Source: a virus (taxonomy: Duplodnaviria > Heunggongvirae > Uroviricota > Caudoviricetes). Taken from it: a DNA stretch of 48,054 nucleotides. The translations under genes and the position numbers were made by a program. Positions 1 to 48,054 of the stretch are shown here, piece by piece; the first letter of the stretch is position 1, and every line of letters starts with the position of its first letter. The notes under the pieces are model-generated. The model made no database searches. It saw only the letters and a program-made list of their open reading frames with translations, and was not told where the DNA came from. Where the stretch lies: IMG/VR virus record IMGVR_UViG_2563366844_000004, one strand, 5' to 3'.

Positions 1-10
1 TACTCCTCCT

Positions 11-715
11 TTATCCGATATCGCTTCGGGAAACGGATAACAACTTTAATTCTGACTCAAGTTCATCAACTCTTTCAGTCAGCTTCTGGATATGGTGAAT
101 CAGTGGAACAACCAGACGTTCGTACATTACACCTTCGGCAACAAGGCCATTGCTGGAAATAGCTTCCGGTGCATCATCTTCGTTAGCTGGTCGCCAGTGT
201 ACAAACTGAGGGGCAATTTCTCCTACTTCCTCGGCAATCAATCCGTAGAATCCCCAGTCACGCCTGTCATTTTCGCATTGTGACCTGTACCATACAGGGC
301 GCATCCTGAAAATGAGATCGGCGTGCTCTGAATCTATCGTCTCTACTGAATGCTTATAGCGGATAGACGATGTTGACCGCAGTACAGACGAAATTGCAGG
401 GTCAGGATTAAGATAAAGGTTTGCCGCCGCTGTAGTCGTGGCCAAATTCCATAAATAAAACGCTTCACGACCTGTCAGTGGATAAAAATCTCCGCCATAA
501 TGACCACTTTCCAGATCGTTCACTTCCACTTTGTTTTTCAGCTTATTATCAACTTCAGTTTTTGTGTATCTGGTGCTGATATCCTGCTTTGCACTGGCCA
601 TATCAGTCTGAAGCGTTGATACTTTTCCGTTAATAGAGGAAATATCTTCCTTTGCTTTACTAACATCTCCCTTCAGCGTGGTGATGTCCCCCGGAATTAC
701 TGTCGATGTAGCCAT
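11..715 (-). CDS. Tail fibre-associated protein with C-terminal intramolecular chaperone-like (peptidase S74-like) region
   Basis: 234 aa ORF at distal end of tail module; N-terminal coiled-coil-like region, C-terminal motifs SSIRYK (Ser..Lys spacing) and GFYGLIAEEV resembling the GxIAQEV signature of tail fibre/spike chaperone domains. Confidence 0.4.
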   Translation of the reverse strand: MATSTVIPGDITTLKGDVSKAKEDISSINGKVSTLQTDMASAKQDISTRYTKTEVDNKLKNKVEVNDLESGHYGGDFYPLTGREAFYLWNLATTTAAANLYLNPDPAISSVLRSTSSIRYKHSVETIDSEHADLIFRMRPVWYRSQCENDRRDWGFYGLIAEEVGEIAPQFVHWRPANEDDAPEAISSNGLVAEGVMYERLVVPLIHHIQKLTERVDELESELKLLSVSRSDIG

Positions 716-724
716 TTGTCTCCC

Positions 725-1006
725 TCACATCCAGCCACGAAGTTGATGTTCAACTACAACCGCGTATTCATCGAATATTGACGATTTTTTTGCATCATTA
801 ATGATGCGCACGTTTACAAAATATCCGTCTTCCTTAACACATATCGGTTCGCCATCTTCAGTCAGTTCTCCGGTTTCTTTGTACACGTTACCTATCACGT
901 CAATAAGAATATCATTCTGCATCGACTCGTCGTCATAATAGCCAGTGCTATCCATAAAGGCCGAAAAGTCGGCCCTGTCTGCAAATTTGAGTGTTAAATC
1001 TTTCAT
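725..1006 (-). CDS. Hypothetical protein (possible tail fibre accessory protein)
   Basis: 93 aa ORF, start overlaps the stf stop (ATGA-type coupling), position directly downstream of side tail fibre. Confidence 0.3.
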   Translation of the reverse strand: MKDLTLKFADRADFSAFMDSTGYYDDESMQNDILIDVIGNVYKETGELTEDGEPICVKEDGYFVNVRIINDAKKSSIFDEYAVVVEHQLRGWM

Positions 1007-3405
1007 TTAATACTCGCCCCCATTTGTGCCTCAGTTAATTCTTTATGCCAAATGCGTAAATTTTTCACATGACCGAACAGGTGTCTGTTGCCACTGGAGG
1101 ATTGTCCACCGATATTAATATTACCGGCAGTATAACGTTGCAATGTATGCAGAGACGGGGAGCTGCTACCTAAAATCCCATCAACAACAACCTGCAACTT
1201 TTTATCTTCTGTAAACTTAAAGCCAGTAACAAATTTCCTTTTCTCTCTATTCCCATATGCTTTATATTCTGTTTTTGTTCCTTTGCCATTGGTGATAATT
1301 AGCCTTTTACCACGAGTGGTAAAACCAAAATACATATAACTTTCATCAGAAACTTCAGTCGTCGCCCCTGTAATTGAGATATTAAGCAAACGCGCAGAGC
1401 CTTCTAAATTAGGCATTTCAGAATCCCAATTAACATTAACTTCCATGAGAACACTAACTGGTGGAGTTGCCCAGTTGAAAGGTATAGGTATGATTACCTG
1501 GTCACTTGCTCTCGTGGCACCGACCTCTGTTGTGATGATAAAAGATGAGGCGTTTAGTCCCTTTTCGAATTGAGGGGTTGTTAACATTAATTTATCGCCA
1601 GGCTTGATTGATCGTTGATGTGCTCCAAACTCAAAACGCCCATACATATTTTTTGCTTCTGGTGATTTGTAGGTAAACTCAACACGAATCCATCCATTAG
1701 ACTCTCTGAATATGTTATAAGTTGCCGCCTCACCTCCAGAATAACTCAACATATCGCCAGTCTCGCAATCAATATATGCGCCAGCGGTCAGTGTGTTACT
1801 TGAGCCATCGTCGTTAACATATGATATTCTTGGACGCAACGTGATAATACCATCCCCACTTACTTTTTTAACTCTGCAGGATAAAGTAACTGATTCATTT
1901 GCCGAAACTGAAATAACCCTGGTATATCCAGTAGAAATTAATGTCGCCCTTTCAGTTGTGGATGTTTCTTTAACGCCAAACAAACCATAACTGAAACCAT
2001 ACTCATCAACTCCCGTGGTAATAGTTAAGTTAGCAGTGTCATAGTTCCACGATTCTGGTGTATTCGTATAAGAAAAAGTATTCGTTCTCTGACCTTCAAT
2101 GAGCAGACCATCTTTTTCAAAACGAGGTTCATTTATCGCTGATTCAGCAAAACACCCAGACTTATCTATATACGTTGCAGTTGACGCCCTGGTAAATGAA
2201 ACAACCTTTTCAGACGGCAATGTAATAACATCGTCACCAACTGTGATGCTCTTATATCCAGGAGCAAACCCGGTAATCATATCCAGTGAATCGTTAAACG
2301 GTATCCACACATCGGGAAGCGGCTGCAAAACTTGTTTATACGGCTCCGCAGCCTGGCTTGCATACTCTCTGGCTGCGTCTTCACTTGCTTTTGCAGCCGT
2401 CTGGCTTGCTGCCGATGCTTGCGCCGAGTTCGCCGCCGCAGTCTCGCTCGCCTTTGCGTTGGTTTCACTGGTTTTTGCTGCTTTTTGACTGTTAGCTGAT
2501 GCAGTGGCAGAAGCAGCCGCCGCGCTTGCAGAACTGGCTGCGGCACTCTCGCTTTGGGCCGCTGCATCCTGACTGCTTTTCGCCGCAGTTTCACTGGCTT
2601 TGGCATTCGTTTCGCTGGTCTTCGCTGCCGTCTGGCTGGACTTTGCGTTAGTTTCACTCGTCTTCGCAGCTTTCTGGCTGTTAGCCGCAGCAGTTGCTGA
2701 TCCAGCTGCTGAAGTCGCAGAACCGGCTGCCGCGCTCTCGCTTTGGGCTGCTGCAACCTGGCTGTTTTTTGCCGCAGTTTCACTGGCTTTGGCATTCGTT
2801 TCGCTGGTTTTCGCTGCCGTCTGGCTGGACTTTGCGTTGGTTTCGCTCGTCTTTGCGGCTGTCTCGCTATTTTTCGCGTTGGTTTCTGATTTTTTGGCTG
2901 CTGTCGCGGAGTTTGCCGATGCAGTCTTTGAGGTCGCTGCCGCCTGTGCACTATTAGCTGCATTCGTTTCTGAGGTTTTCGCCGCGTTCTTTGATGATGC
3001 CGCTGCAGTTTCGGATTTCTTTGCCGCCGCTGCGCTCTGAGAGGCGGCTTCGGCGTTGCGTGCCACTTCTTCCACCATTGCCTCAAAACGACGCAATGCC
3101 TCCGGCATGACATCATCTTCCGTCATGGCACCGAGAAAATCATTCAGCGTACCTGGTCTGGAGCCTTCATAGACGGTAATGGTCCCGGCATGTGAAGGCG
3201 GAAAACCTTCAACCAGCAGGGTGACGCTGTACTGGCCATACTCAACATCCATGCTGTAACGTCCGGCTTCATCCGGATTTTCAGAAGCCACCGTGTTCAC
3301 CAGTACCGTGGTGCTGTTACGCTTTGCCTTCAGTTGAATAGTGCAGTTCTGTATTGGTTTTCCCGCACCATCTTTCAGCACACCTGAGATTTTTACTGCT
3401 GCCAT
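1003..3405 (-). CDS. stf: Side tail fibre protein (lambda Stf-like N-terminus, divergent C-terminal receptor-binding part)
   Basis: N-terminus MAAVKISGVLKDGAGKPIQNCTIQLKA matches the lambda Stf start; ORF track begins 2 codons upstream at a GTG; long Ala/Ser/Thr-rich repeat region (KTSETNAKSSQTAAK units); follows lom as in lambda. Confidence 0.85.
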   Translation of the reverse strand: MAAVKISGVLKDGAGKPIQNCTIQLKAKRNSTTVLVNTVASENPDEAGRYSMDVEYGQYSVTLLVEGFPPSHAGTITVYEGSRPGTLNDFLGAMTEDDVMPEALRRFEAMVEEVARNAEAASQSAAAAKKSETAAASSKNAAKTSETNAANSAQAAATSKTASANSATAAKKSETNAKNSETAAKTSETNAKSSQTAAKTSETNAKASETAAKNSQVAAAQSESAAAGSATSAAGSATAAANSQKAAKTSETNAKSSQTAAKTSETNAKASETAAKSSQDAAAQSESAAASSASAAAASATASANSQKAAKTSETNAKASETAAANSAQASAASQTAAKASEDAAREYASQAAEPYKQVLQPLPDVWIPFNDSLDMITGFAPGYKSITVGDDVITLPSEKVVSFTRASTATYIDKSGCFAESAINEPRFEKDGLLIEGQRTNTFSYTNTPESWNYDTANLTITTGVDEYGFSYGLFGVKETSTTERATLISTGYTRVISVSANESVTLSCRVKKVSGDGIITLRPRISYVNDDGSSNTLTAGAYIDCETGDMLSYSGGEAATYNIFRESNGWIRVEFTYKSPEAKNMYGRFEFGAHQRSIKPGDKLMLTTPQFEKGLNASSFIITTEVGATRASDQVIIPIPFNWATPPVSVLMEVNVNWDSEMPNLEGSARLLNISITGATTEVSDESYMYFGFTTRGKRLIITNGKGTKTEYKAYGNREKRKFVTGFKFTEDKKLQVVVDGILGSSSPSLHTLQRYTAGNINIGGQSSSGNRHLFGHVKNLRIWHKELTEAQMGASIK
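2330..3060. repeat. Imperfect tandem DNA repeats (about 190 bp units) inside stf
   Basis: Near-identical stretches such as ttcgccgcagtttcactggctttggcattcgtttcgctggt recur at about 2580 and 2770; protein shows repeated SQTAAKTSETNAKASETAAK blocks; repeats create long spurious antisense ORFs. Confidence 0.7.
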
Positions 3406-3415
3406 ATCCACTCCA

Positions 3416-3444
3416 CAAAAAAGCCCGCCTGAACCGGCGGGCTG
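3416..3444 (-). terminator. Rho-independent terminator-like hairpin downstream of lom
   Basis: Plus strand aaaaaagcccgcctgaaccggcgggct: GC stem gcccgcc/ggcgggc; on minus strand the stem is followed by a T-run. Confidence 0.5.
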
Positions 3445-3469
3445 TCATAACACTGTGTTACCTGGCTAA

Positions 3470-4069
3470 TCAGAATTTATAACCGACACCCACGATGAAA
3501 CCGTCAGTGCGCCAGTCACCACTGCCGGAGCCTTCATAAGCAATATCAATGGCCACGGATTCGGTCGGGTTAAACTGCACGCCAGCTCCCCACGCCAGAG
3601 ACGTGTTGCTGTGGCGACCGTCATCACTTCCGGTCAGCACATCGTGCGTTTTCCCCTTATTGTCAGTTACGCGGAGATAATCCCCGGAAAAAGTCGACAC
3701 ACGGCTGTAAGCCATACCCGCCATCGCATACGCGCTGAACCATTCATTCACGCGCACAGACGGCCCCACCATCACGCTGAACCAGCGGTTACGCACGGAA
3801 TCTTCATGCCAGCGGGTATTGCTGTAACGGGTAAGCTGGCGATTCTTGTCTCCTGCATAGCTGAATGACGTCACCAGCCCCAGTGTGTCCGTAAACTCAT
3901 AACGGTATTTCACGTTAATGCCCTTCAGGTCATCGTTGCCGGGCATATCAGTATGGGTCTGAAGATACCCGGCGCTTAGTGTGGACTGATGCTCTGCTGC
4001 GCTCGCTGGCGTACCAGCGGCGACCAGCCAGACTACTGTGGACAGAATAACAGCACATAATTTACGCAT
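3470..4069 (-). CDS. lom: Lom-family outer membrane protein (Ail/Lom/PagC beta-barrel)
   Basis: 199 aa, N-terminal signal peptide ([24 protein letters not shown]), ends in aromatic residue (GYKF), canonical position between J and stf. Confidence 0.85.
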
Positions 4070-4092
4070 AATTACCTCTCGCTTTTCTGCAA

Positions 4093-4117
4093 TAAAAAAG
4101 GCGCCATTTCTGGCGCC
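4093..4117 (-). terminator. Rho-independent terminator-like hairpin downstream of J
   Basis: Plus strand taaaaaaggcgccatttctggcgcc: stem ggcgcca/tggcgcc with tttc loop, T-run on minus strand. Confidence 0.5.
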
Positions 4118-4136
4118 CGTATCTGGGTTATAAAAT

Positions 4137-7100
4137 TCAGCTAATCGTGATGCCTGCAGTGGCTTTCTTCATCACAACAACCAGCAAATCGCTGATACTT
4201 GCTGTGGGATACCAGCCATTTACCCACCATGCTGATACAGAAAACTCCAGTGTCATTACGCCACTGCCTGCAGGCATATCAATAACACCCGTGTAAATCA
4301 GAGTATTATCCAGAGCCGTTCGGTTATAAATTTCAGCCCCGTTTTTCTTCACTATCAGGCGGCATGACGAATAAGTATCGCTATTCTCCCGTTCATGTCT
4401 GGCACCGCTGAAAGCCACCGCTGGAATAACAATTTGCCGGTCAAACGGCTGATCGTCATAAACCCTGACGGTAATGGTCCCTGATGGCCACCGCTCCGGT
4501 GCACGGGAGTCCCGGGGGAAAGCTTTGCCCACTGTTTTAACGAGATCGCCTTCAATCTGGTTCGCGGACAGTTTTCCCAGAACCCGACAGTTCTCGTTAA
4601 TCGTGACGTTGTTGAGCGTCCCGGAGTTCGCATTCACGCTACCGCTGATATCGGCATTTTTCGCCGTCAGCCGCCCGTCCGGTGTCAGGGAAAATGCCGG
4701 AGGATTACCGCCGCTGGTAATGGTGGGAGCCGTCAGATATTTCAGGAACACTTCGTTCATGAATATCTGATCGCCCTGACCAACAAACATCGGCTTTGTG
4801 TTGCCATTCGCAGGATTAACCATCGCAATCCTGTCCGCCGCCAGCAGCACCTGACTCTGCATGCCGTCAGGGGTGTTCTCAATACCGGCACCAATACCCG
4901 CGATATAAAGGCGTCCGTCCTGCATCTGCTGCAGCTTCACAGCCCACATGCTGTTCAGGTTATTATTTGTATCAACCTGAACCTTCTGTATCTGCTGAAT
5001 TGCCGCACTCTGGTCTTCCAGTTTCTTATTGACGGTCTGCGTGATTTCATTGCTGACATCCGTAATGGACGTCCTGATTTCAGCCAGGTCAGGCGCAAGC
5101 TGACCGTTATCAATCTGCGTCCACAGCTCCTGAGCCAGATGGCTTTTCCCTATCTCGCCTTTGAAAAAATCCAGATAGCCGGATGCATCATCACTCGGCT
5201 GGCCAACAGCCTCCACAAATGCCGATTTGCCAACGGTGTTCACACTGCGGATGTAAAAATAATAATCATGGCCCGGTTTGATATTGATACTGGCAGCTAT
5301 CCAGTACAGCGCCGTGCCAAGATAGCGGGCTGTGGTTTCAACCTGCCTGATATCCGCAATCCGCTTTTCCGAGAACCAGAACTCAAACTGTACCGTCGGA
5401 TCATAAACGGCAAGATGGGGCGTGGCGGTTATCTGAAAATAGCCCGGCGTCAGCTCAATCCGCGACGGCGCTGCCGGTGCGGCAATACGGAACGATACCG
5501 ATGCCGGATCGCCCTGCTGCCCCCAGGCATTTGCCGCCCGGACTGTCAGCCTGTAGTTCCCTGGCGCCAGTTGCGTGAAGCGGTATGTGGTTTCCGTCGT
5601 CCGGGCCGTGCTGACCAGCCGCTCACTGCCGTCATCCGCTGCCACGGTCAGGCGAAGCATAAAGCTCACGCCCTTCACCACCTTCGGCGTATCCCAGCGC
5701 GCCAGCACCTGGTATTCCCCGCTGTCTGCGGTGACTTCGGCGGTCAGGTGCTGCACCGCTGGCGGCGTGACACCATTCACCGTGCCGCTCTGGTCGCCGT
5801 CAAAGTGCGCCCCGTTATCCACGATGGCTTCTTTTTCCGGTACATGCTGCACGGCAGTGATGGCATACGTGCCGTCATCGTTCTCACGGATACTCACACA
5901 GCGGAACAGGCGCTGACGCAACGTCGGCAACTTCAGCCCCCACACACTGTATTCTGCAACGCCGTCAGGAACCCGATTCACTTTCACCTTAAGTCCGTCG
6001 GTGACGGACTGAACCTCCACGCTGACCGGATTGCCACTTCCGTCAACCAGGCTTATCAGCGTGGTACCGGAGGATGGCAGCGTGATTTCACGGTCGAGCG
6101 TCAGCGTCCGGGTCTGGCTGTTCACCGCCAACACGCGACCACCGGTGCTGATACCGGCATAGTCATCATCGCAGATTTCAATAACATCGCCCGGCACATG
6201 GCGAAGCCCTTCTGCGCCCACGCTGAAATCCACGGTCTGCGTTTCCAGCAGTTCCGTTTTAATCAGCCACAGCCCGGCGCGGTGTGCCTGCCCCCGGCTG
6301 GTACAGCCAAAGGCATCCATCTTCGTGACATTACGACCGTAACGGGCAATGGCCTGCGTATCTTCAACAAGCTCTGTCGCCGTCTCCCAGCCGTTGTTCG
6401 GGTCAATCCAGTTCACCTCAACGGCATTATGGCGGTCCTTCAGGGCGCTGAAGCTGTAGCGGAACGGCGCGCCATCATCCGGCATCACCACATTACTGCG
6501 GTTATAGGTCCACACCTTATCCGACTGTCGGTCCTGCACGAACGTCAGCGTCTGCCCGTTCCATACCGGCATACAGCGCATCGCCGAGCAGAAATCACTG
6601 AGCACATCCCACGCCTTGCGCTGTGTGGTCAGGTACGCATTACAGGTGATGCGCGGCTCCGTGCCGCCAAAGCCGTCCGGCACTGACTGGTCGCAGTACT
6701 GGCCGATGACATACAGCGCCCATTTGTCCACATCCGCCGCACCAAGACGTTTCCCCATGCCGTAGCGCGGGTGGGTCAGCATATCCCACAGACACCAGGC
6801 CATGTTGTTGCTGTATGCTGGTTTTAACGTTCCGTCCCAGATACCGCTGTATTGTCGCGTCTGCGGGTTATAGTTCGACGGCACCTGCAGAATGCGCCCG
6901 CGAAGATGATAATTACGGCTCACCTGCTGGCTGCCGAACTGCTCCGAGTCCACCTGTACGCCGACCAGTGCCGTGTTCGGGTAGCACTGTTTCACATCGA
7001 TGATCTCGGTGTATGACGACCAGAGCGTTTTGTTCTGCAGCTGGTCTGTGGTGCTGTCCGGCGTCATCCTGCGCATCCGGATATTGAACGGGCGCGGCGG

Positions 7101-7616
7101 CAGGTTATCCACCACCACCGAGGCCAGATACTGCGAGGTGGTTTTGCCCTTAATGGTGATGTCTTTTTCCGTCACCCAGCCACCGTTACGCTGTATCTGA
7201 ACCAGCAGGCGGACTTCCGACGGATTCCTGTCTCCCTTTGAGGTGGTTTCCACCAGTGCCTGTACACCGAAGGTAAAGCGCAGACGGTCGATGTTTGCCG
7301 ACGTGATGGTCCGGGTGATCGGCGTTTCATATTTCACTTCCGTACCCAGCACCGTCTCGGAACCGGAGGATTCAAATCCCTCCGGCGGTGACTGCTCCTG
7401 CTCACCTGCCCGGAACACCACCGTGACGCCGGAGATATTGGTATTCCCCTCACTGTCCAGCACCGGCGTACTGTTCAGCAGCACGCTTTTTAATCCATCC
7501 ACCGGACCTTCAATCGGCCCTTCACTGATGGCGTCTATCACGCTCAGCATCTGGGATGATTTCAGGTTGTCCTTCGCTTCGCGCGGGATATGCCCCTTAC
7601 TGCTGCCTTTACCCAT
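4137..7616 (-). CDS. J: Tail tip host specificity protein J (central tail fibre)
   Basis: 1159 aa ORF immediately after tail assembly protein I; size and order match lambda J. Confidence 0.9.
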
Positions 7617-7676
7617 TCCTCACGCTCCAGAAACGACAAAACCGCCCTGAGGCGGTTTCACACAAAACATTCTGCA

Positions 7677-8324
7677 TCAACGACCAATCACCACAACCTG
7701 ACCACCATCTCCTTCATCTGCCGTGCTGATCTCCTGCGAAATCACCCGTGACCCCACGCGCATTTCACCGTACAGAACCGGCAGAACATTGCCCTGGGCA
7801 ACCATGTTATCCAGTGAGGAGAAATAGGTGTTCTGTTTGCCGTTATCCGTTGTCTGTGTACGGGGAGTTCTGGCTTTCGGTGCCAGCATCTGCGCCACAC
7901 CACCGAGCACCATACTGGCCCCCGCACCATACATTCCTGTAATTGCGGCAGCCCCCAACCAACCTGCAGGGTTCCACCATGCCACCGCAATCAGCGCCGC
8001 CCCCAGCACAGCCTGAAAAAGACCGCCACTTTTGGCTCCCGCCAGACGCGGCACAATGTGGATCACGGCACCATTTGCCAGCGGTTCATTAAGACGGGCT
8101 GATAATTCAGTTTCACCTGCATCACGCCCGGCAATGCGTACCTGATACCAGCCGTCGCTCAGTTTCTGACGAAACGCCGGAAGCTGTGTGGTCAGCGCCC
8201 GGACTGCTTCGGCCCCCGTTTTCACACGCAGGTCGATGCGGCAGCCAAATCGTTGTAAATCCCCGTAAAGGCAGATTCGCGCCATGCCCGGTGACGCCAG
8301 AGGGAGTGTGTGCGTCGCTGCCAT
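7677..8324 (-). CDS. I: Tail assembly protein I
   Basis: 215 aa; MAATHTLPLASPGMARICLYGDLQRFG... and C-terminal QTTDNGKQNTYFSSLDNMVAQGNVLPVLYGEMRVGSRV closely resemble lambda I. Confidence 0.85.
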   Translation of the reverse strand: MAATHTLPLASPGMARICLYGDLQRFGCRIDLRVKTGAEAVRALTTQLPAFRQKLSDGWYQVRIAGRDAGETELSARLNEPLANGAVIHIVPRLAGAKSGGLFQAVLGAALIAVAWWNPAGWLGAAAITGMYGAGASMVLGGVAQMLAPKARTPRTQTTDNGKQNTYFSSLDNMVAQGNVLPVLYGEMRVGSRVISQEISTADEGDGGQVVVIGR

Positions 8325-8965: not shown

Positions 8966-8970
8966 GGGAT

Positions 8971-14166: not shown

Positions 14167-14214
14167 TCAATGCGTCCCCCTGTAGTGCAGTACCACAGGG
14201 GGAATAACGGAAAA

Positions 14215-31892: not shown

Positions 31893-31899
31893 ATAGTTG

Positions 31900-36358: not shown

Positions 36359-36551
36359 TCAACACTCCCACAACAAAAAGCCACAGCAATCAAAAAATGA
36401 GCACGCAGAATCAAAATACTCTCTAATCGTAACGCATTTTGAGATTTTTGATACGTTTTTTTGGGATTATGTAACGCCAAATGGTCATTTTGTGTCAGAA
36501 AAATAAATCTTAGTACCGAGAATATGTAGCTTCCATCCTTCATCGTTCTAT

Positions 36552-38529: not shown

Positions 38530-38535
38530 GGACAG

Positions 38536-39405: not shown

Positions 39406-39828
39406 TTAATGAACAATGACAGAATCGTCGGAAGACCCGCCGCCGCTGAAATGCGCTTTCCGGTAAACGGCTTGGACTGCATCATCATGCGCATCAATTG
39501 CCGTACTTAACGCTTCCTGCGCCGCCAGTAATGCACGGCGTTCCAGGGTATCGAAGATGCAGAGTCGGTGACGCAGCTCGCGCGGAAGGATTGCCAGAAT
39601 TGCTGGGATCAGCTTCTGAATTTTTTCCCTTTGCGCATTCGTTTCACCTTTCAACCAACGGTGATAGATATTCTGCTGATTGTTCCAGTCCTTGCCTGGA
39701 ACCAGGGGCAATTCGCCGCCCCCCTGGCGCAGATATTCTTCAGTAATTGCATTGGCTACCCATGCCTGCCCTTTTTCGGCTGCCAGGGCAAACAACACCG
39801 ATTCGATGTGCTCATGCTTGATTTTCAT
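39406..39828 (-). CDS. ydaT: YdaT-like protein
   Basis: 140 aa ORF between the Cro-like ydaS and the O-like gene. Confidence 0.7.
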   Translation of the reverse strand: MKIKHEHIESVLFALAAEKGQAWVANAITEEYLRQGGGELPLVPGKDWNNQQNIYHRWLKGETNAQREKIQKLIPAILAILPRELRHRLCIFDTLERRALLAAQEALSTAIDAHDDAVQAVYRKAHFSGGGSSDDSVIVH

Positions 39829-39850
39829 GAATCATTTGCCTCTTGATGTT

Positions 39851-40147
39851 TCAGGTATGATCAAATGAGGATTTGTTACTGTCATTTAGTTGCTTCACTG
39901 ACATATTCTGCGAACAACATGCCGAACGTCGTAAATATGACCAGTCAATATCAGGACGAAGTTCTTCGCACAGCACCTCACCTCTTGTTGCACGTTCAAT
40001 TGCTGGACATCTCTCGGCAGGCAATTGACGTACCCCTTTGATCCATTGATTTACGCTTGGAGGTGATACACCTAAAAGCCTAGCCATTGCTGTTTGCCCA
40101 CCGACAACAGCACAAGCTTGCTTGAATGAATAGTTCTCTTTTTTCAT
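39851..40147 (-). CDS. ydaS: YdaS-like HTH protein (Cro-position)
   Basis: 98 aa, HTH-like QTAMARLLGVSPPSVNQWIKG; divergent from repressor gene across an operator-containing intergenic region. Confidence 0.75.
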   Translation of the reverse strand: MKKENYSFKQACAVVGGQTAMARLLGVSPPSVNQWIKGVRQLPAERCPAIERATRGEVLCEELRPDIDWSYLRRSACCSQNMSVKQLNDSNKSSFDHT

Positions 40148-40175
40148 CGAATGAACTCCAAAAACACACAGAGAT

Positions 40176-40248
40176 ATTAGGCGACGCCTAATACAAATGT
40201 CAATAGGCTATGCCTAATACAATGAGAGTAGGGATTGCCTAATGCAAT
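40176..40248. promoter_or_regulatory. Operator cluster (three palindromic sites) in the racR / ydaS divergent promoter region
   Basis: ATTAGGCGACGCCTAAT (about 40176-40192), AATAGGCTATGCCTAAT (about 40202-40218), ATTGCCTAATGCAAT (about 40234-40248); shared half-sites ATTAGGC / GCCTAAT. Confidence 0.55.
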
Positions 40249-40270
40249 GAGCATAGGAGAATATTAAGCA

Positions 40271-40747
40271 ATGCTTAGTGGTAAAGACTTAGGCCGAGCG
40301 ATAGAGCAGGCCATTAACAAAAAAATCGCATCGGGATCCGTCAAATCAAAGGCGGAGGTCGCACGCCACTTCAAAGTCCAACCACCATCAATCTATGACT
40401 GGATTAAGAAAGGCTCCATAAGTAAAGATAAACTTCCAGAATTATGGCGTTTCTTTGCTGATGTTGTTGGTCCAGAGCATTGGGGGCTTAACGAATACCC
40501 CATACCAACCCCCACCAATCCAGATACAAAAAGTGAACTTTTAGATATAAACAACCTTTATCAAGCAGCCTCTGATGAAATAAGAGCGATTGTAGCTTTC
40601 CTGTTATCTGGAAATGCTACAGAACCAGATTGGGTTGACCACGATGTTCGCGCCTACATAGCAGCGATGGAAATGAAAGTGGGTAAGTATCTGAAAGCTC
40701 TAGAATCTGAACGGAAAAGCCAGAACATCACAAAAACTGGAACTTAA
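40271..40747 (+). CDS. racR: Prophage repressor RacR-like (CI-position HTH protein)
   Basis: 158 aa, N-terminal HTH (SKAEVARHFKVQPPSIYDWIKKG), divergent to ydaS, flanked on both sides by operator-like palindromes. Confidence 0.75.
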   Translation: MLSGKDLGRAIEQAINKKIASGSVKSKAEVARHFKVQPPSIYDWIKKGSISKDKLPELWRFFADVVGPEHWGLNEYPIPTPTNPDTKSELLDINNLYQAASDEIRAIVAFLLSGNATEPDWVDHDVRAYIAAMEMKVGKYLKALESERKSQNITKTGT

Positions 40748-40823
40748 ACTTATATGGTCTGACGGAAAACTCCTGGATTCCGTTATTTAACCCCCCCATC
40801 ACTTTCTCCAGTCGCCATCACCT

Positions 40824-40884
40824 ATTAGGTTACGCTTAAAACATTAGGCATAGCCTATTGACAATCAATTAGGCATTACCTATA
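40824..40884. promoter_or_regulatory. Second operator-like cluster downstream of racR (OL-like)
   Basis: ATTAGGCATAGCCTATT (about 40843-40859, exact reverse complement of the second OR site) and ATTAGGCATTACCTATA (about 40868-40884), plus ATTAGGT half-site at about 40824. Confidence 0.45.
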
Positions 40885-41055
40885 GTTCCAGCATACCACC
40901 CACCCCGCCCCACAGAACGCCAGGCAATACTTCGAGTTACCAGGCAGTGGTCAGGGGTTAAGTAGCCAGCCCGAGGCGTATGAACATGACGGCGGGATTC
41001 AAATTTTGCAGTGCAGCAGTTAGTTCCGCCACCCGGCGTTAAGGGGAGAGATAAG

Positions 41056-41190
41056 ATGGTGCATTACGAAGTAGTTCAGTATTTGATGGATTGTTGCGGT
41101 ATCACTTACAGCCAGGCTGTGCAGGCTTTACGTAGCAACGACTGGGATCTCTGGCAAGCAGAAGCCTCTATCCGCAACAACAAGATGTGA
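41056..41190 (+). CDS. ydaG: YdaG-like small protein
   Basis: 44 aa: MVHYEVVQYLMDCCGITYSQAVQALRSNDWDLWQAEASIRNNKM; below track cutoff, read directly from sequence. Confidence 0.7.
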   Translation: MVHYEVVQYLMDCCGITYSQAVQALRSNDWDLWQAEASIRNNKM

Positions 41191-41200
41191 GGTGCGAAAA

Positions 41201-41353
41201 ATGCAAAAAATCGACCTCGGCAATAACGAATCCATGGTGTGCGGCGTGTTCCCTAACCAAGATGGAACGTTCACTGCTATGACGTATACCAAAAGCAAAA
41301 CATTTAAAACAGAAACAGGCGCACGTCGCTGGCTTGCCAGAAATACTTGCTAA
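41201..41353 (+). CDS. ydaF: YdaF-like small protein
   Basis: 50 aa: MQKIDLGNNESMVCGVFPNQDGTFTAMTYTKSKTFKTETGARRWLARNTC; read directly from sequence. Confidence 0.7.
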   Translation: MQKIDLGNNESMVCGVFPNQDGTFTAMTYTKSKTFKTETGARRWLARNTC

Positions 41354-41773
41354 TCCATTATTTGGATTAATTCAATATTCTCGCTGTAGGGGTATAGCAG
41401 AAACCACCAAAGCCCGGAGGTGGTGAAATAAAACCGGGCACAACACGAAGGCGCATTTCCGATATCCATAAAGAGTCGGTCTTGTCTGTTAAATTTAAAT
41501 GGTGGGAGTGCGCCTCCGGTTGTGGATAACAACACTGCTATGTGTAGTCTTGGCGGCATCAGTTTTTTCTTGAAGTTCGACTGATGCCCGCCCTTTTTAA
41601 AGTGAATTTTGTGATGCGGTGAATGCGGCTAAGCGCACGCGGCACAGTTAAAAGTCATGTTAGTCCTTATTGGTTTGGGTGGGAAAGCCGACTGTAATTG
41701 TTAACTGGTTGCAGTCACCTGGAGGCACCAGGCACCGCATCAACAAAGTTCATTTGTAAAAATGGAGATAATT

Positions 41774-41995
41774 ATGATTGCACATCACTTCGGAACTGAT
41801 GAAATACCACGTCAGTGTGTGACTCCTGGTGACTATGTTCTTCATGAAGGCCGGACATATATTGCCTCGGCAAACAATATTAAAAAGCGAAAACTTTATA
41901 TTCGTAACCTGACCACAAAAACATGCATTACTGACTGCATGATTAAAGTCTTCCTCGGTCGTAATGGTTTACCTGTAAAGGCGGAGTCATGGTGA
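41774..41995 (+). CDS. kilR: KilR cell division (FtsZ) inhibitor
   Basis: 73 aa from [54 protein letters not shown]... Confidence 0.9.
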
Positions 41996-42165
41996 TGACT
42001 AAGAAAATAAAATGTGCTTACCACCTTTGCAATAAAGAAATTGAAGAAAGCAAAAGTATCAAAAGACCACTTCATTTCATGCGTGGAGTTATCCAAACGA
42101 CGGAAATGAAAAAATATTGTAGTGAAAGTTGTGCCGAAAAAGACCAGATGGCACACGAACTTTAA
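41995..42165 (+). CDS. ydaE: YdaE-like Cys-rich small protein
   Basis: 56 aa: [56 protein letters not shown]; start overlaps kilR stop; read directly from sequence. Confidence 0.7.
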   Translation: MTKKIKCAYHLCNKEIEESKSIKRPLHFMRGVIQTTEMKKYCSESCAEKDQMAHEL

Positions 42166-42239
42166 TTAACTGACTATGCGAAACTGAATTTATGCCAGCA
42201 ATGGCAGGGATTCGCTCAACCTTAATTAAGGAGAAAAAC

Positions 42240-42515
42240 ATGATTACCAGTTATGAAGCCACTGTTGTAACTACTGATGACATTGTTCACGAGGTTAATC
42301 TGGAAGGAAAGCGTATTGGCTACGTGATTAAAACAGAAAATAAAGAAACCCCATTCACTGTGGTTGATATCGACGGTCCATCAGGCAACGTTAAAACACT
42401 TCACGAAGGTGTCAAAAAAATGTGCCTGGTGCATACCGGAAAGAATCTGCCCGCAGAAAAAAAAGCCGAATTTCTGGCAACTCTAATTGCAATGAAATTA
42501 AAAGGTGAAATCTGA
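42240..42515 (+). CDS. racC: RacC protein
   Basis: 91 aa from MITSYEATVVTTDDIVHEVNLEGKRIGYVIKTENKETPF... (track ORF begins 16 codons upstream). Confidence 0.85.
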   Translation: MITSYEATVVTTDDIVHEVNLEGKRIGYVIKTENKETPFTVVDIDGPSGNVKTLHEGVKKMCLVHTGKNLPAEKKAEFLATLIAMKLKGEI

Positions 42516-42616
42516 AAGAAATAGCCTGCGTATGGCGCAGGCTATGAACAGTGTGTATCCGGCAAGATCATTCACTGAACAAAACGAATTTTAATCTGAG
42601 TTGAGGTTAAAAAACA

Positions 42617-45268
42617 ATGAGCACAAAACCACTCTTCCTGTTACGGAAAGCGAAAAAATCATCCGGTGAACCTGACGTCGTCCTGTGGGCAAGCGACGAT
42701 TTTGAATCGACCTGTGCCACTCTGGACTACCTGATCGTTAAGTCAGGTAAAAAACTGAGCAACTATTTTAAAGCTGTTGCCACAAATTTTCCTGTCGTTA
42801 ATGACCTTCCCCCTGAAGGTGAGATCGATTTTACCTGGAGTGAACGCTATCAACTCAGCAAAGACTCCATGACATGGGAACTAAAACCGGGAGCAGCGCC
42901 AGACGACGTTCACCACCAGGATAATGCTCAAGAAACCAACGAACTGGCGGGAGGCCAGGAAGAAAACGCGCAGGCAGACGCCCACGAGGATTGCCAGGAT
43001 TGCGAAGTCTCTGTAGCCACTTTGCGGTTCACACAGCGTCTTCTGCACATTTTTACGTATGCGGCCGGGGATCGGAAATACCTGCATCATGCCACCCGAG
43101 AACAACGCGAACACATTACTGCTCTTGAGATGGATCAGGAAAACAGCTATGTCCAGAATCTGCTGTTGGCCATACGCGGCATGGCAGAACCGACAACTCT
43201 GGATAATGCCGCCCTGCTCCGCCTGACTGATGCAATTAAGGCAGTTTTCTCTATCACTAAAAAACATCAGCCCTATGAATTTAAGAATTTCATTTCAGCC
43301 TGGCTGGATACCGAACACATTGATCGCGGTCTTCTGACAAAAGAATGGCGAAAAGGGAATCGTGTTTCACGCATCACTCGCACGGCTTCCGGTGCTAATG
43401 CTGGCGGCGGGAACCTCACAGATCGCGGCGAAGGTTTCGTCCACGATCTGACGTCACTGGCGCGCGATATAGCCACTGGCGTACTGGCCCGTTCAATGGA
43501 CGTGGACATCTATAACCTTCATCCGGCACACGCTAAACGCATTGAGGAAATTATCGCTGAAAATAAACCGCCCTTTTCTGTTTTCCGCGACAAATTCATC
43601 ACCATGCCTGGCGGGCTGGATTATTCCCGCGCCATCGTGGTTGCGTCCGTGAAAGAAGCACCAATTGGGATCGAGGTCATCCCCGCTCACGTCACTGCAT
43701 ATCTGAACAAAGTACTGACTGAAACCGATCATGCCAACCCTGATCCGGAAATCGTGGATATTGCCTGCGGTCGCTCCTCTGCCCCGATGCCGCAGCGAGT
43801 AACAGAAGAAGGAAAACAGGATGATGAAGAAAAACTGCAACCATCTGGAACAACGGCAGATGAACAGGGAGAGGCTGAAACAATGGAACCGGACGCAACT
43901 AAACATCATCAGGACACGCAGCCGCTGGATGCTCAGTCACAGGTAAATTCTGTTGATGCGAAATATCAGGAACTGCGGGCAGAACTCCATGAAGCTCGGA
44001 AAAACATTCCATCAAAAAATCCTGTCGATGCCGATAAATTGCTTGCTGCATCACGTGGTGAATTTGTTGACGGAATTAGCGACCCGAACGATCCGAAATG
44101 GGTTAAGGGGATCCAGACTCGCGATTCTGTGTACCAGAACCAGCCAGAAACGGAAAAAACCAGCCCGGATATGAAACAACCTGAGCCAGTAGTGCAACAG
44201 GAACCGGAAATAGCCTGCAATGCCTGCGGCCAGACTGGCGGGGATAACTGCCCTGACTGTGGTGCGGTGATGGGCGACGCAACAAACCAGGAAACATTCG
44301 ATGAAGAGAATCAGGTTGAAGCTAAGGAAAATGATCCGGAGGAAATGGAAGGCGCTGAACATCCGCACAATGAGAATGCTGGCAGCGATCCGCATCGCGA
44401 TTGCAGTGATGAAACTGGCGAAGTCGCAGATCCCGTAATCGTAGAAGACATAGAGCCAGGTATTTATTACGGAATTTCGAATGAGAATTACCACGCAGGT
44501 CCCGGTGTCAGTAAGTCTCAGCTCGATGACATTGCTGATACTCCGGCACTGTATTTGTGGCGTAAAAATGCCCCCGTGGACACCACAAAGACAAAAACGC
44601 TCGATTTAGGAACCGCTTTCCACTGCCGGGTACTTGAACCGGAAGAATTCAGTAACCGCTTTATCGTAGCACCTGAATTTAACCGCCGTACAAACGCCGG
44701 AAAAGAAGAAGAGAAAGCGTTTCTGATGGAATGCGCAAGCACAGGAAAAATGGTTATCACTGCGGAAGAAGGCCGGAAAATTGAACTGATGTATCAAAGC
44801 GTTATTGCTTTGCCGCTGGGGCAATGGCTTGTTGAAAGCGCCGGACACGCTGAATCATCAATTTACTGGGAAGATCCTGAAACAGGAATTTTGTGTCGGT
44901 GCCGTCCGGACAAAATTATCCCTGAATTTCACTGGATCATGGACGTGAAAACTACGGCGGATATTCAACGATTCAAAACCGCTTATTACGACTACCGCTA
45001 TCACGTTCAGGATGCATTCTACAGTGACGGTTATGAAGCACAGTTTGGAGTGCAGCCAACTTTCGTTTTTCTGGTTGCCAGCACAACTATTGAATGCGGA
45101 CGTTATCCGGTTGAAATTTTCATGATGGGCGAAGAAGCAAAACTAGCAGGTCAGCTGGAATATCACCGCAATCTGCGAACCCTGGCTGACTGCCTCAATA
45201 CCGATGAATGGCCAGCTATTAAGACGTTATCACTGCCCCGCTGGGCTAAGGAATATGCAAATGACTAA
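42617..45268 (+). CDS. recE: Exodeoxyribonuclease VIII RecE
   Basis: 883 aa; acidic low-complexity middle region, C-terminal nuclease domain; overlaps recT start; canonical recE-recT order. Confidence 0.95.
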
Positions 45269-46070
45269 GCAACCACCAATCGCAAAAGCCGATCTGCAAA
45301 AAACTCAGGAAAACCGTGCACCAGCAGCAATTAAAAATAACGACGTGATTAGTTTTATTAACCAGCCATCAATGAAAGAGCAACTGGCAGCAGCTCTTCC
45401 ACGCCATATGACGGCTGAACGTATGATCCGTATCGCCACCACAGAAATTCGTAAAGTTCCGGCGTTAGGAAACTGTGACACTATGAGTTTTGTCAGTGCA
45501 ATCGTACAGTGTTCACAGCTCGGACTTGAGCCAGGTAGCGCCCTCGGTCATGCATATTTACTGCCTTTTGGTAATAAAAACGAAAAGAGCGGTAAAAAAA
45601 ACGTTCAGCTAATCATTGGCTATCGCGGCATGATTGATCTGGCTCGCCGTTCAGGTCAAATCGCCAGTCTGTCAGCCCGTGTTGTCCGTGAAGGTGACGA
45701 ATTTAATTTCGAATTTGGCCTTGATGAAAAGTTAATACACCGCCCAGGAGAAAACGAAGATGCCCCGGTTACCCACGTCTATGCTGTCGCAAGACTGAAA
45801 GACGGAGGTACTCAGTTTGAAGTTATGACGCGCAGACAGATTGAGCTGGTGCGCAGCCAGAGTAAAGCTGGTAATAACGGGCCGTGGGTAACTCACTGGG
45901 AAGAAATGGCAAAGAAAACAGCTATTCGTCGCCTGTTCAAATATCTGCCCGTATCAATTGAGATCCAGCGTGCAGTATCAATGGATGAAAAGGAACCACT
46001 GACAATCGATCCTGCAGATTCCTCTGTATTAACCGGGGAATACAGTGTAATCGATAATTCAGAGGAATAA
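45261..46070 (+). CDS. recT: Single-strand annealing recombinase RecT
   Basis: 269 aa from [50 protein letters not shown]...; track ORF begins 19 codons upstream. Confidence 0.95.
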
Positions 46071-46126
46071 TTCAGTCTGGCGGTGTAATGCACCGCCAAC
46101 TTGAAATATTTTTTATGAGAAAAATT

Positions 46127-46321
46127 ATGAGATATGACAATGTTAAACCATGTCCATTTTGTGGTTGTCCATCAGTAACGGTGAAAGCCATTTCAGGATA
46201 TTACCGAGCGAAGTGTAACGGATGCGAATCCCGAACCGGTTATGGTGGAAGTGAAAAAGAAGCACTCGAAAGATGGAATAAACGAACCACTGGAAATAAT
46301 AATGGAGGTGTTCATGTATAA
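46127..46321 (+). CDS. ralR: Restriction alleviation protein RalR (Lar)
   Basis: 64 aa from MRYDNVKPCPFCGCPSVTVKAISGYYRAKCNGCESRTGYGGSEKEALERWNKRTTG...; four-Cys zinc ribbon. Confidence 0.9.
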   Translation: MRYDNVKPCPFCGCPSVTVKAISGYYRAKCNGCESRTGYGGSEKEALERWNKRTTGNNNGGVHV

Positions 46322-46502
46322 AATTACCGCCACTATTGAAAAGGAAGGTGGCACTCCTACTAACTGGACAAGATATTCAAAATCTAAACTAACGAAATCA
46401 GAATGCGAAAAAATGCTCTCAGGTAAAAAAGAAGCAGCCGTTTCCAGAGAGCAGAAAGTAAAACTGATAAATTTTAATTGCGAGAGACTTCAGTCCTCGT
46501 GA
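46314..46502 (+). CDS. ydaC: YdaC-like small protein
   Basis: 62 aa from MYKITATIEKEGGTPTNWTRYSKSKLTKSECEKMLSGKKEA...; start overlaps ralR stop. Confidence 0.7.
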   Translation: MYKITATIEKEGGTPTNWTRYSKSKLTKSECEKMLSGKKEAAVSREQKVKLINFNCERLQSS

Positions 46503-46601
46503 ATTGCATTGTATTCAAATTAAAACTTCATAGCTGATTATTAATAATCAACATCGGGCGTCAATTTCAGTCTAACATTGGCGCCTGCCAGAGGTGATGC
46601 G

Positions 46602-46817
46602 ATGGCACAAGTAATCTTTAATGAAGAGTGGATGGTTGAATACGGCCTGATGCTTCGCACTGGTCTGGGGGCCAGACAAATTGAAGCATACCGCCAGAAC
46701 TGTTGGGTGGAAGGCTTCCACTTCAAACGAGTATCTCCTTTAGGGAAGCCAGACAGTAAGCGAGGGATTATCTGGTACAACTATCCAAAGATAAATCAGT
46801 TTATCAAAGACTCATGA
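46602..46817 (+). CDS. xisR: Excisionase (XisR / YdaQ-like)
   Basis: 71 aa from [44 protein letters not shown]...; immediately upstream of integrase. Confidence 0.7.
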
Positions 46818-46818
46818 T

Positions 46819-48054
46819 ATGTCTAAATTACCAACAGGTGTCGAGATTAGAGGTAGATACATTCGCATCTGGTTCATGTTTCGAGGAAAACGATGTCGGG
46901 AAACATTAAAAGGCTGGGAGATTACAAACAGTAATATTAAAAAGGCCGGAAATTTAAGATCGCTGATAGTTCATGAAATAAACTCCGGTGAATTTGAGTA
47001 TTTAAGACGTTTTCCCCAGTCCAGCACTGGGGCAAAAATGGTGACAACGAGAGTCATAAAAACGTTCGGAGAACTTTGTGATATCTGGACAAAAATTAAA
47101 GAGACAGAGTTAACAACAAACACAATGAAGAAAACGAAATCACAATTAAAAACACTCAGAATAATAATTTGTGAAAGTACCCCGATATCACATATTCGTT
47201 ATAGCGATATCTTAATCTACCGGAATGAACTGCTGCATGGAGAAACGCTTTACCTGGATAATCCAAGATCCAACAAAAAAGGAAGAACCGTGCGCACAGT
47301 TGATAACTATATCGCCCTGCTCTGTTCGCTGTTGCGTTTTGCGTATCAGTCGGGATTTATATCAACCAAACCATTTGAAGGAGTAAAAAAATTACAGCGA
47401 AACAGAATAAAGCCTGATCCGTTATCTAAAACAGAATTCAATGCATTAATGGAAAGTGAAAAAGGACAGAGCCAGAACTTGTGGAAATTTGCCGTTTACT
47501 CAGGACTTCGTCACGGGGAACTGGCAGCTCTGGCGTGGGAGGATGTGGATCTCGAAAAGGGAATAGTGAATGTCAGAAGAAACCTGACGATACTTGATAT
47601 GTTCGGTCCCCCAAAAACAAATGCCGGGATCCGGACAGTAACACTACTGCAGCCTGCTCTTGAAGCACTGAAGGAGCAATACAAACTGACCGGGCATCAT
47701 CGCAAAAGCGAAATCACTTTTTATCATCGGGAGTACGGCAGAACCGAAAAGCAAAAACTGCATTTTGTTTTCATGCCCAGAGTGTGTAACGGAAAACAGA
47801 AACCTTATTACTCGGTAAGCAGTTTGGGTGCGAGATGGAATGCAGCAGTAAAACGTGCTGGTATTCGCCGCCGTAATCCGTACCATACGCGGCATACTTT
47901 TGCCTGCTGGCTGTTGACGGCAGGAGCGAACCCGGCGTTTATAGCCAGCCAGATGGGGCATGAAACTGCGCAGATGGTGTATGAAATTTACGGTATGTGG
48001 ATTGATGACATGAACGACGAACAGGTAGCCATGTTGAATGCGCGGTTATCGTAG
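46819..48054 (+). CDS. intR: Tyrosine integrase IntR (Rac prophage integrase)
   Basis: 411 aa; C-terminal catalytic region with HTRHTFACWLLTAGANPAFIASQMGHETAQM and Tyr in VYEIYGMW; stop codon is the last codon of the window. Confidence 0.9.
   Translation: MSKLPTGVEIRGRYIRIWFMFRGKRCRETLKGWEITNSNIKKAGNLRSLIVHEINSGEFEYLRRFPQSSTGAKMVTTRVIKTFGELCDIWTKIKETELTTNTMKKTKSQLKTLRIIICESTPISHIRYSDILIYRNELLHGETLYLDNPRSNKKGRTVRTVDNYIALLCSLLRFAYQSGFISTKPFEGVKKLQRNRIKPDPLSKTEFNALMESEKGQSQNLWKFAVYSGLRHGELAALAWEDVDLEKGIVNVRRNLTILDMFGPPKTNAGIRTVTLLQPALEALKEQYKLTGHHRKSEITFYHREYGRTEKQKLHFVFMPRVCNGKQKPYYSVSSLGARWNAAVKRAGIRRRNPYHTRHTFACWLLTAGANPAFIASQMGHETAQMVYEIYGMWIDDMNDEQVAMLNARLS

Follow-up and report, generated by a model that had tools for sequence, protein, structure and literature searches.

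The Rac prophage in Escherichia coli K-12 is cryptic, and the DNA analyzed here raises the question of whether a complete counterpart of this element is carried at the same locus and, if so, whether it could still act as a phage. The window, that is, the whole stretch of 48,054 nucleotides held as virus record IMGVR_UViG_2563366844_000004, had been described in an earlier note as a Rac-family prophage that appears structurally complete and may be inducible. Our results suggest that the window very probably represents 48 kb of a lambdoid temperate prophage of the Rac lineage, approximately 52.6 kb in length and located at ttcA of E. coli, which would be the undeleted counterpart of K-12 Rac. 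We hold with high confidence that the prophage is structurally intact, as judged from its predicted genes. Its possible inducibility is about evenly balanced, and the production of infectious particles could go either way.

Comparison with the cryptic Rac prophage of K-12

The cryptic prophage Rac of E. coli K-12 (NC_000913.3, 1411899-1434958) was used as the reference; its proteins were compared with the window by tblastn, and its DNA was aligned to the window. K-12 Rac mapped colinearly in seven blocks with 90-99.7% DNA identity, which supplies the alignment proposed in the earlier note. All 17 Rac genes named in that note were recovered, with amino acid identities to K-12 of 99.3% for intR, 100% for xisR, 95.7% for rcbA/ydaC, 100% for ralR, 97.8% for recT, 85.2% for recE, 96.7% for racC, 73.2% for ydaE, 95.9% for kilR, 91.8% for ydaF, 90.9% for ydaG, 98.7% for racR, 99.0% for ydaS, 98.6% for ydaT, 99.3% for ydaU, 99.6% for ydaV, and 100% for trkG (73-100% overall, with 16 of the 17 at 85-100% and ydaE alone at 73%). 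No match in the window was obtained in this search for sieB, tfaR, pinR, or ynaE. Membership in the Rac lineage is indicated by IntR and XisR, by racR-ydaS-ydaT, by recE-recT together with ralR/RalA and kilR, and by the colinearity of the late region, all of which were found.

K-12 Rac lacked exactly three segments of the window, with junction microhomology of 0-2 bp. The first (3868-12298; 8,431 bp) comprises the C-terminus of the tape measure, M, L, K, I, J, and part of lom. The second (14057-25616; 11,560 bp) comprises the N-terminus of the tail chaperone, the tube, the connectors, the coat, the DUF6651 protein, the MuF-like protein, the portal, the terminase, the TAGT-like protein, and the C-terminus of the ParB-like protein. 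The third (28048-37310; 9,263 bp) comprises the N-terminus of Rz, the lysozyme, the holin, the tRNAs, the Q-like gene, ybcO, the DUF1367 gene, ietS, ietA, the DUF977 gene, and the C-terminus of ydaW. The deletion end-points fall inside genes of the window: K-12 ydaW consists of the N-terminal 151 residues of YdaW followed by out-of-frame Rz sequence, ynaK of residues 1-86 of the ParB-like protein, ydaY of the tail chaperone from residue 4, and ynaA of tape-measure residues 1-312 followed by lom sequence. The late remnants of K-12 (rzpR/rzoR, trkG, ynaK, ydaY, ynaA, and lomR) aligned in the order of the window with 98.6-99.7% DNA identity, and the distal fibre region (1-3052) was the only late part that differed. 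Because the remnants are colinear and the end-points lie within window genes, the late module of the window is the module from which that of K-12 Rac descended, not an unrelated graft. K-12 Rac would be this element with three segments (8.4, 11.6, and 9.3 kb) lost through illegitimate deletion, lom interrupted by IS5, and the fibre-tip module exchanged for another.

These findings bear directly on the possibility of a recent mosaic, in which an early region of Rac had been placed on an unrelated late module, as in a hybrid that shares only the left arm. Lambdoid prophages at ttcA are mosaic; Rac-SA53 has the segment from int through kilR and the att core in common with this lineage and differs in immunity and late genes, and the window has its fibre-tip cassette in common with prophages at other loci. 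The order and identity of the K-12 remnants and the position of the deletion end-points nevertheless largely refute such an origin, which we regard as very improbable.

K-12 Rac and the window share int and xis, the early-left genes, the RacR-YdaS-YdaT immunity region, ydaU and ydaV, trkG, and the order of the late remnants, and K-12 Rac shares the 26-bp core at ttcA with the relatives of the window. K-12 Rac has as its own features the IS5 copy in lomR, sieB, and a different stfR-tfaR-pinR-ynaE end. In the window, IetAS is present with an IS903-type element inserted in it, and the relatives of the window have sitABCD in place of pinR and ynaE. The block containing trkG (25617-28047) was 99.7% identical to K-12 at the DNA level, clearly above the chromosomal flanks and the other prophage blocks, which recent exchange or strong constraint could explain. 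Positions 41333-41378 comprise 46 bp where K-12 carries sieB (554 bp), and a 69-codon minus-strand open reading frame (ORF) at 41350-41559 had no similarity to sieB. Additionally, a recE segment (42914-43321) had no DNA alignment to K-12, and RecE comprises 883 residues compared with 866 in K-12.

Intactness, boundaries, and structural genes of the prophage

The intactness of the genes was judged by the coverage of Pfam, NCBIfam, and PHROG profiles and by alignment to close relatives. Profile matches were essentially end to end for both terminase subunits (TerS and TerL), the portal, the MuF-like protein, DUF6651, the tube, the tape measure, J, M, L, K, and I, the four connectors, and chaperone G; for the holin, lysozyme, Rz, and Q-like protein; and for YdaU, YdaV, RecE, RecT, Xis, and Int. 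The coat was the exception, with a partial match to a distant P22 model, yet it was 100% identical to the coat of the relatives. Relative to NZ_CP042899 (97.4% identity over 25.3 kb), the only indels were clusters in J and I that compensate, one of 2 bp between genes, and a net change of 3 bp where the TAGT and ParB genes overlap, and relative to NZ_AP022287, nine substitutions and zero nonsense codons were found over the right 26 kb. The comparison with these two genomes revealed no frameshift, as the earlier note had supposed, and together with the three segments missing from K-12 and the full-length profile coverage, it bears out the description of a Rac-family element that retains what K-12 Rac has lost by deletion.

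NZ_AP022287 is the closest lineage with a closed genome (99.96% identical over the right half), and its tape-measure gene (L002 22410-25643, corresponding to window 10000-13233) has a stop at codon 833, where the window has Gln. The sister prophage is, as predicted from this nonsense codon, defective, and the prophage of the window is without that defect.

The window is bounded by genes: its left edge directly follows the start codon of the neighbouring gene, and its right edge is the stop codon of intR. The 26-bp att core TTGTTCAGGTTGTATTGTTCTTTCTT was located 76-101 bp past the intR stop, inside ttcA, in a relative that is 99.97% identical to the right half of the window (L001), and 4,482 bp to the left of position 1 in two relatives that are 99.97-99.98% identical to window 1-10715 (L009 and L010). 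To the left of position 1, the latter two carry a 97-residue ORF and sitDCBA, followed by the core next to uspF. These results suggest that the whole element measures approximately 52.6 kb from att to att, with sitABCD as extra cargo beyond the window. The span 1-48054 had been taken as the whole prophage, and this has to be corrected, since the att cores, sitABCD, and approximately 4.5 kb lie outside it in the relatives; the search for attL and attR succeeded on both sides in near-identical relatives and at neither end within the window itself. The sitABCD genes (iron/manganese uptake) lie inside the att-bounded prophage (L009/L010 10716-15197), where they replace the pinR-ynaE end of K-12, and a frameshifted diguanylate cyclase gene was observed near the sitABCD end in relative L003.

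A further alternative is that completeness is an artefact of the assembly or of the window, such as a chimera of two prophages in a draft scaffold. The probable source assembly (GCA_000407765.1) dates from 2013 and is at scaffold level, but many closed genomes show this arrangement without a break: among 5,426 complete E. coli genomes, 667 had a single megablast match that covered at least 80% of window 1-24000, and 68 had one that covered at least 80% of window 24001-48054. Moreover, NZ_AP022287, in which the region between uspF-sitABCD and ttcA-dbpA is the Rac locus, is colinear with both halves of the window. An artefact of this type has, therefore, a negligible probability.

The gene order, as far as it can be read from the predicted genes, is that of a working lambdoid siphovirus. 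Minus-strand genes fill almost the whole of 11-40147, and plus-strand genes fill 40271-48054. The early arm runs in the order int-xis, ralR/RalA, recET, and kilR, followed by racR, the divergent ydaS (Cro-like) and ydaT (CII-like), and ydaU/ydaV. Then come a variable cargo slot occupied by IetAS, the DUF1367 gene, ybcO, the Q-like gene, two tRNAs, an S21-type holin, a SAR lysozyme, Rz/Rz1, trkG, and the ParB and TAGT genes, and finally the terminase, portal, MuF-like protein, DUF6651 protein, P22-type coat, connectors, tube, G/GT, tape measure, M-L-K-I-J, lom, and side fibre. The gene sets of a functional lambdoid siphovirus for packaging and head, for connector and tail with G/GT, and for holin-endolysin-spanin lysis were all found, the scaffold being assigned by presumption.

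The packaging and head genes are all on the minus strand. The small terminase subunit (22869-23963; 364 residues) matched Pfam Terminase_2, and the large subunit (21587-22888; 433 residues) matched Terminase_6N (3-213 of 215) and Terminase_6C (1-154 of 155). The latter has the two-domain T4-type architecture; its identity to the terminases of Salmonella and Escherichia phages that have been isolated, with genomes of 40-45 kb, is 40-51%. These phages belong to groups that package by the headful mechanism (Jersey-, Dhillon-, and Kagunavirus-like), so that this mode of packaging, and with it transduction, is plausible for the element. The portal (20178-21584; 468 residues) covered Pfam DUF4055 completely (1-140 of 140), and a MuF/SPP1 gp7-like minor head protein (19082-20197) was recognized by Pfam Phage_Mu_F and NCBIfam phageSPP1_gp7. 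The MuF domain (residues 154-275) was the sole domain detected in the latter by Pfam and NCBIfam, with none in the C-terminal ~95 residues. The head region of some GenBank relatives is annotated with "NAD+--asparagine ADP-ribosyltransferase", possibly the MuF-like protein. A DUF6651 protein (18213-18977; Pfam DUF6651 3-113 of 113) occupies the position of the scaffold and, from this position, may act as one. The major capsid protein (16975-18114; 379 residues) belongs to the P22-coat family (Pfam P22_CoatProtein) and is 75% identical to the coat of HK639 (NC_016158), a viable lambdoid phage with the same head type and a 49.6-kb genome; HK639 is a different phage overall, and the comparison with it covered the coat protein. 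Remoter relatives of the coat have genomes of 47-56 kb.

The connector and tail genes, also on the minus strand, continue with the tail terminator, the tail completion protein/Neck1, the head closure protein Hc1, the head-tail adaptor Ad1, and a 58-residue protein (15204-16932; PHROGs 179, 169, 161, 493, and 1514), and with the tail tube (14215-15177; 320 residues; Pfam Phage_tube_2 1-266 of 266). The tail assembly chaperones (13397-14166; PHROG 313) comprise G (13705-14166; 153 residues) and the GT extension (13397-13717). An A-AAA-AAG slippery heptamer is located at the end of G (13717-13711), and the -1 frame is open for 106 codons, to just before the start of the tape measure, which is the canonical arrangement predicted for G/GT. 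The tape measure (10000-13233; 1077 residues; Pfam TMP_2, TMP_4, and Tape_meas_lam_C) has no internal stop. The tail-tip assembly proteins I, K, L, and M (7677-10007) matched PHROGs 32, 30, 18, and 14, with indels relative to L003 that compensate, and the tail tip attachment protein J (4137-7616; 1159 residues) has six J-specific Pfam domains, each full-length. The Ail/Lom outer-membrane protein Lom (3470-4069; Pfam Ail_Lom 1-199 of 199) is intact, and the lomR fragments of K-12, interrupted by IS5, align to it.

The side tail fibre (1003-3405, minus strand; 800 residues) is a continuous ORF with a lambda Stf-type N-terminus (Pfam phage_tail_N 2-131 of 134), Ala/Ser/Thr-rich repeats, and a spike-fibre C-terminal domain (NCBIfam GTA_spike_fiber). 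The "pseudogene" and "head spike fiber domain" coding sequences given for this fibre by RefSeq PGAP (L003 12712-15120 and L002 13440-15815) were dismissed as an annotation artefact, the 802-codon ORF being unbroken. Direct repeats with ~83% identity (2434-2871) encode Ala/Ser/Thr-rich segments, and the fibre of relative L006 has 688 residues compared with 800 in the window, so that the repeat number varies. Beyond the fibre, also on the minus strand, lie a 93-residue fibre-cassette protein (725-1006), an ORF with no family match that is kept beside the fibre in relatives L006-L011, and a tail-fibre tip protein (11-715; 234 residues) with an S74 intramolecular-chaperone domain (Pfam Peptidase_S74), the exact protein being present in many prophages at several loci. 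For this cassette (1-1006), the identical 234-residue protein was found in prophages elsewhere in the chromosome, close to zinT and to pinR/ynaE (L007, L008, and L011), indicating module exchange between prophages.

Upstream of the terminase, a TAGT-like glycosyltransferase (24154-25086) and a ParB_N-domain protein (25079-25870) are encoded on the minus strand (24154-25870; Pfam TAGT and ParB_N; tblastn of ynaK). The TAGT family is that of the TET-associated or "GREB1-related" glycosyltransferases, and with the ParB_N protein directly upstream of the terminase it may form a DNA-modification pair.

Predicted lytic cycle and the insertion in ietS

The excisionase gene xisR and the integrase gene intR (46602-48054, plus strand) matched Pfam DUF1233, Arm-DNA-bind_2, and Phage_integrase. 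The adjoining segment of mixed orientation (46127-46520) holds the ralR toxin gene and rcbA/ydaC on the plus strand, recognized by tblastn, and the antisense small RNA RalA on the minus strand (46320-46498; Rfam RF02694, 220 bits). The recE and recT genes (42617-46070, plus strand; RecT of 269 residues) matched Pfam Exonuc_VIII, DUF3799, and RecT, and the small early-left genes ydaG, ydaF, kilR, ydaE, and racC (41056-42515, plus strand) were placed by tblastn and by block boundaries. The immunity region (39406-40747) includes ydaT and ydaS on the minus strand and racR on the plus strand (40271-40747), identified by Pfam YdaS/P22_Cro and YdaT and by the NCBIfam RacR equivalog, which scored above its cutoff; promoter-like sites lie beside it at 40203-40174 (minus strand) and 40858-40886 (plus strand). 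The replication genes ydaV (DnaC-like) and ydaU (37783-39393, minus strand) matched Pfam IstB_IS21/Bac_DnaA and DUF1376, and they are followed on the same strand by a full-length YdaW (DUF1627; 253 residues) and a DUF977 protein (36552-37760; Pfam).

Late control and lysis genes are on the minus strand as well. The DUF1367/IrsA gene (30887-31486), a YbcO nuclease-like gene (30597-30887), and a Q-like antiterminator gene (30058-30600) were identified by Pfam, the Q-like protein matching DUF1133 at 1-175 of 176 and, weakly, Phage_antitermQ; this full-length gene is the predicted activator of the late genes. Between Q and the lysis genes lie tRNA-Gly(TCC) and tRNA-Thr(TGT) (29551-29704; ARAGORN and Rfam). 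The interval between Q and the holin (28777-30057) holds these two tRNAs and several terminator-like hairpins. In Stx phages and in Rac-SA53, this is where toxin genes are carried; in the window, it held no recognizable protein cargo. The lysis cassette consists of an S21-type holin (28561-28776), a SAR-type lysozyme (28064-28561), Rz (27603-28067), and the Rz1 lipoprotein (27662-27847), a 61-residue ORF embedded in Rz (Pfam Phage_holin_2_1, Phage_lysozyme, and Phage_lysis). The potassium transporter gene trkG (26008-27465, minus strand), 100% identical to K-12 TrkG in amino acids and assigned to the TrkH family by NCBIfam, follows as cargo.

Drawing on lambdoid biology and the Rac literature (PMC5917428 and PMC4632033), we infer the following steps. 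RacR would repress the divergent promoters, and the loss of this repression would turn on the YdaS/YdaT switch, replication by YdaU/YdaV, and the early-left kil-recET-xis-int arm. XisR and IntR would then excise the element at the 26-bp core; the K-12 proteins are excision-proficient (PMC4632033). The Q-like protein would activate a late operon that includes the tRNAs, the S21-type pinholin, the SAR endolysin, Rz/Rz1, trkG, and the packaging and morphogenesis genes, and headful-type packaging would be followed by pinholin-SAR endolysin lysis. The element would behave like the active Rac-like phage KingRac, a 46.8-kb prophage at ttcA that forms tailed particles, lysogenises K-12, and, in the gut of mice, takes the place of K-12 Rac (Frazao et al. 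2019; PMC6731689).

A single gene is disrupted, namely ietS. Elements of the IS903 reference type are about 1057 bp in length, with roughly 18-bp inverted repeats GGCTTTGTTGAATAAATC, a 9-bp target duplication, and a single DDE transposase. Junction analysis against an IS-free relative defined an insertion sequence (IS) of 1056 bp (33507-34562, minus strand) with terminal inverted repeats GGCTTTGTTGAATAAAT, a 9-bp duplication ATATATATC at 33498-33506 and 34563-34571, and a transposase with full-length DDE_Tnp_1_5 and DDE_Tnp_1 domains (Pfam). The size, repeats, duplication, and transposase fit the IS903 group of the IS5 family, and the element is 99.3-99.6% identical to IS5-family copies in E. 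coli. It splits ietS (31900-35229, minus strand), which encodes the S8 peptidase of the IetAS defence system (PADLOC IetS; NCBIfam IteS), after approximately codon 223. The fragments matched positions 3-209 and 281-748 of the PADLOC IetS profile; the intact 754-residue gene of a relative passes the NCBIfam IteS cutoff, and in silico removal of the IS and one copy of the duplication restored a 754-residue ORF with one substitution relative to that gene. The partner gene ietA (35204-36358, minus strand), encoding an AAA+ ATPase, is intact (PADLOC IetA 1-371 of 374; NCBIfam IteA above cutoff). IetAS is thus present and, by the prediction from these genes, inactivated. Only two data sets carried the same insertion: GCA_000407765.1, whose scaffold KE136626.1 matches window 31552-38229 at 100% identity and is the probable source of the window, and the SRA run SRR640939; none of the complete E. 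coli genomes had it. No further defence genes were detected when PADLOC was applied to the ParB, TAGT, DUF1367, DUF977, YdaW, and fibre-tip proteins; the ParB-like protein had a partial match to the N-terminus of a methyltransferase.

Given open genes throughout, two readings of the prophage have to be weighed. It may be a live "phage Rac", that is, a direct, undeleted, and fully open counterpart of the K-12 fossil that has diverged from K-12 about as far as the flanking chromosome has, a reading to which we give rather less than an even chance. Alternatively, the ORFs may be intact and the prophage functionally defective, being held in place or unable to complete the lytic cycle through regulatory or size defects, with polarity of the IS on Q, an oversize genome, inactivating missense changes, or a missing antitermination function as the candidate causes. 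This is a serious contender, somewhat short of an even chance in our estimation.

Several observations count against a live phage. The IS is inserted in the early-right unit with the replication genes on one side and Q on the other; it has the orientation of that unit, and a terminator-like hairpin (34282-34260) lies within it. Counting sitABCD and the IS, the element measures ~52.6 kb between its att sites, more than KingRac (46.8 kb) and HK639 (49.6 kb), and may approach or exceed the capacity of the head. Missense differences from relatives include TerS D305A and RecE F534C, and the sister lineage NZ_AP022287 is already decaying through its tape-measure nonsense codon. No link to the SOS response was recognizable: Pfam found no domain in RacR, hence no S24-type self-cleavage module was detected, and the LexA box CTGT-N8-ACAG had zero matches in the window. 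KingRac itself is only weakly inducible by mitomycin C (PMC6731689). In addition, the 26-bp core is absent from the window, which stops at the intR stop codon, and the att sites and ~4.6 kb of the element lie outside its sequence. An SOS-controlled antirepressor and CI-like self-cleavage of RacR were also considered and set aside on the LexA-box and Pfam results, respectively.

On the other side, the strong hairpin terminator after ietS (31859-31892) is already present in IS-free relatives, and a promoter-like site (31572-31545) precedes DUF1367-ybcO-Q; therefore, the expression of Q must already bypass the cargo terminators. A polar effect of the IS on Q and on late-gene activation is possible, but unlikely to be decisive. 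The claim that the IS affects only accessory cargo accordingly holds for the gene that is split and needs qualifying for its position in the early-right operon upstream of Q. Since relatives of the coat package genomes of 47-56 kb, a 52.6-kb genome is borderline and could still be packaged. Furthermore, that approximately 45 phage genes are open at a divergence from K-12 like that of the flanks speaks for continuing selection for phage function. In the relatives, the flanking chromosome has 97.2-97.9% identity to K-12, which resembles that of the prophage blocks (95.5-99.7%) and is compatible with, and no proof of, a long residence at ttcA with phage function kept by selection.

Known Rac-like prophages and implications

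The element is of an ordinary and known kind: full-size and active Rac-like prophages, including KingRac, Rac-SA53, and Sp10/CP-933R, have been published (PMC6731689, PMC12251178, PMC5917428, and PMC4632033) and are common in E. coli genomes, and the contrast with the cryptic K-12 Rac is not new. KingRac and the element of the window are alike as complete Rac-like prophages at ttcA, the latter as predicted from its genes; the two differ in length and were compared by description, because KingRac is deposited as SRA reads only. Sp10 and CP-933R of E. coli O157:H7, which are Rac-like, located at ttcA, and reported to have kept replication functions and to be transferable (PMC4632033), were likewise compared by description. 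Full-sized Rac-like prophages carrying LT-II in enterotoxigenic E. coli have been described by Jobling (PMC5917428).

Rac-SA53 (KU052037) has int, xis, ralR, recET, kilR, ydaT/U/W, and irsA-ybcO-q in common with the window, and the att core at ttcA in common with its relatives. Its dicA/dicC-type immunity, toxin cargo, lysis genes, and late module with baseplate-type genes are its own, and it aligned to only 36% of the right half of the window, at 92.6% identity. The record ON470595 ("Escherichia phage vB_EcoS-683R6") and its sister records match window 5565-48054 at 99.7-99.9% identity, leaving the IS aside; ON470595 lacks the IS insertion and has shifted boundaries. It is a PHASTER "intact" prediction from a clinical isolate with no isolated phage (bioRxiv 10.1101/2022.06.29.498070), and, being PHASTER predictions, it and its sister records were not accepted as evidence of particles.

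The comparison provides an exact map of the losses of K-12 Rac, with three deletions and defined end-points, and explains the K-12 orphan ORFs ydaW, ynaK, ydaY, and ynaA as deletion chimeras. It also provides an example of a prophage-borne IetAS defence system inactivated by an IS, and it singles out GCA_000407765.1 as a strain that might yield a phage with Rac immunity on induction. The practical value is modest, and the current understanding of these prophages is unchanged. If the element is a live "phage Rac", it would point to long-term selection for an active lifestyle at ttcA, not simple domestication. KingRac has been implicated in the transfer of ~120 kb of adjacent chromosome, probably by transduction (PMC6731689 and PMC12251178), and a live element would likewise be capable of headful or lateral transduction of the adjoining chromosome and of moving sitABCD and trkG between strains.

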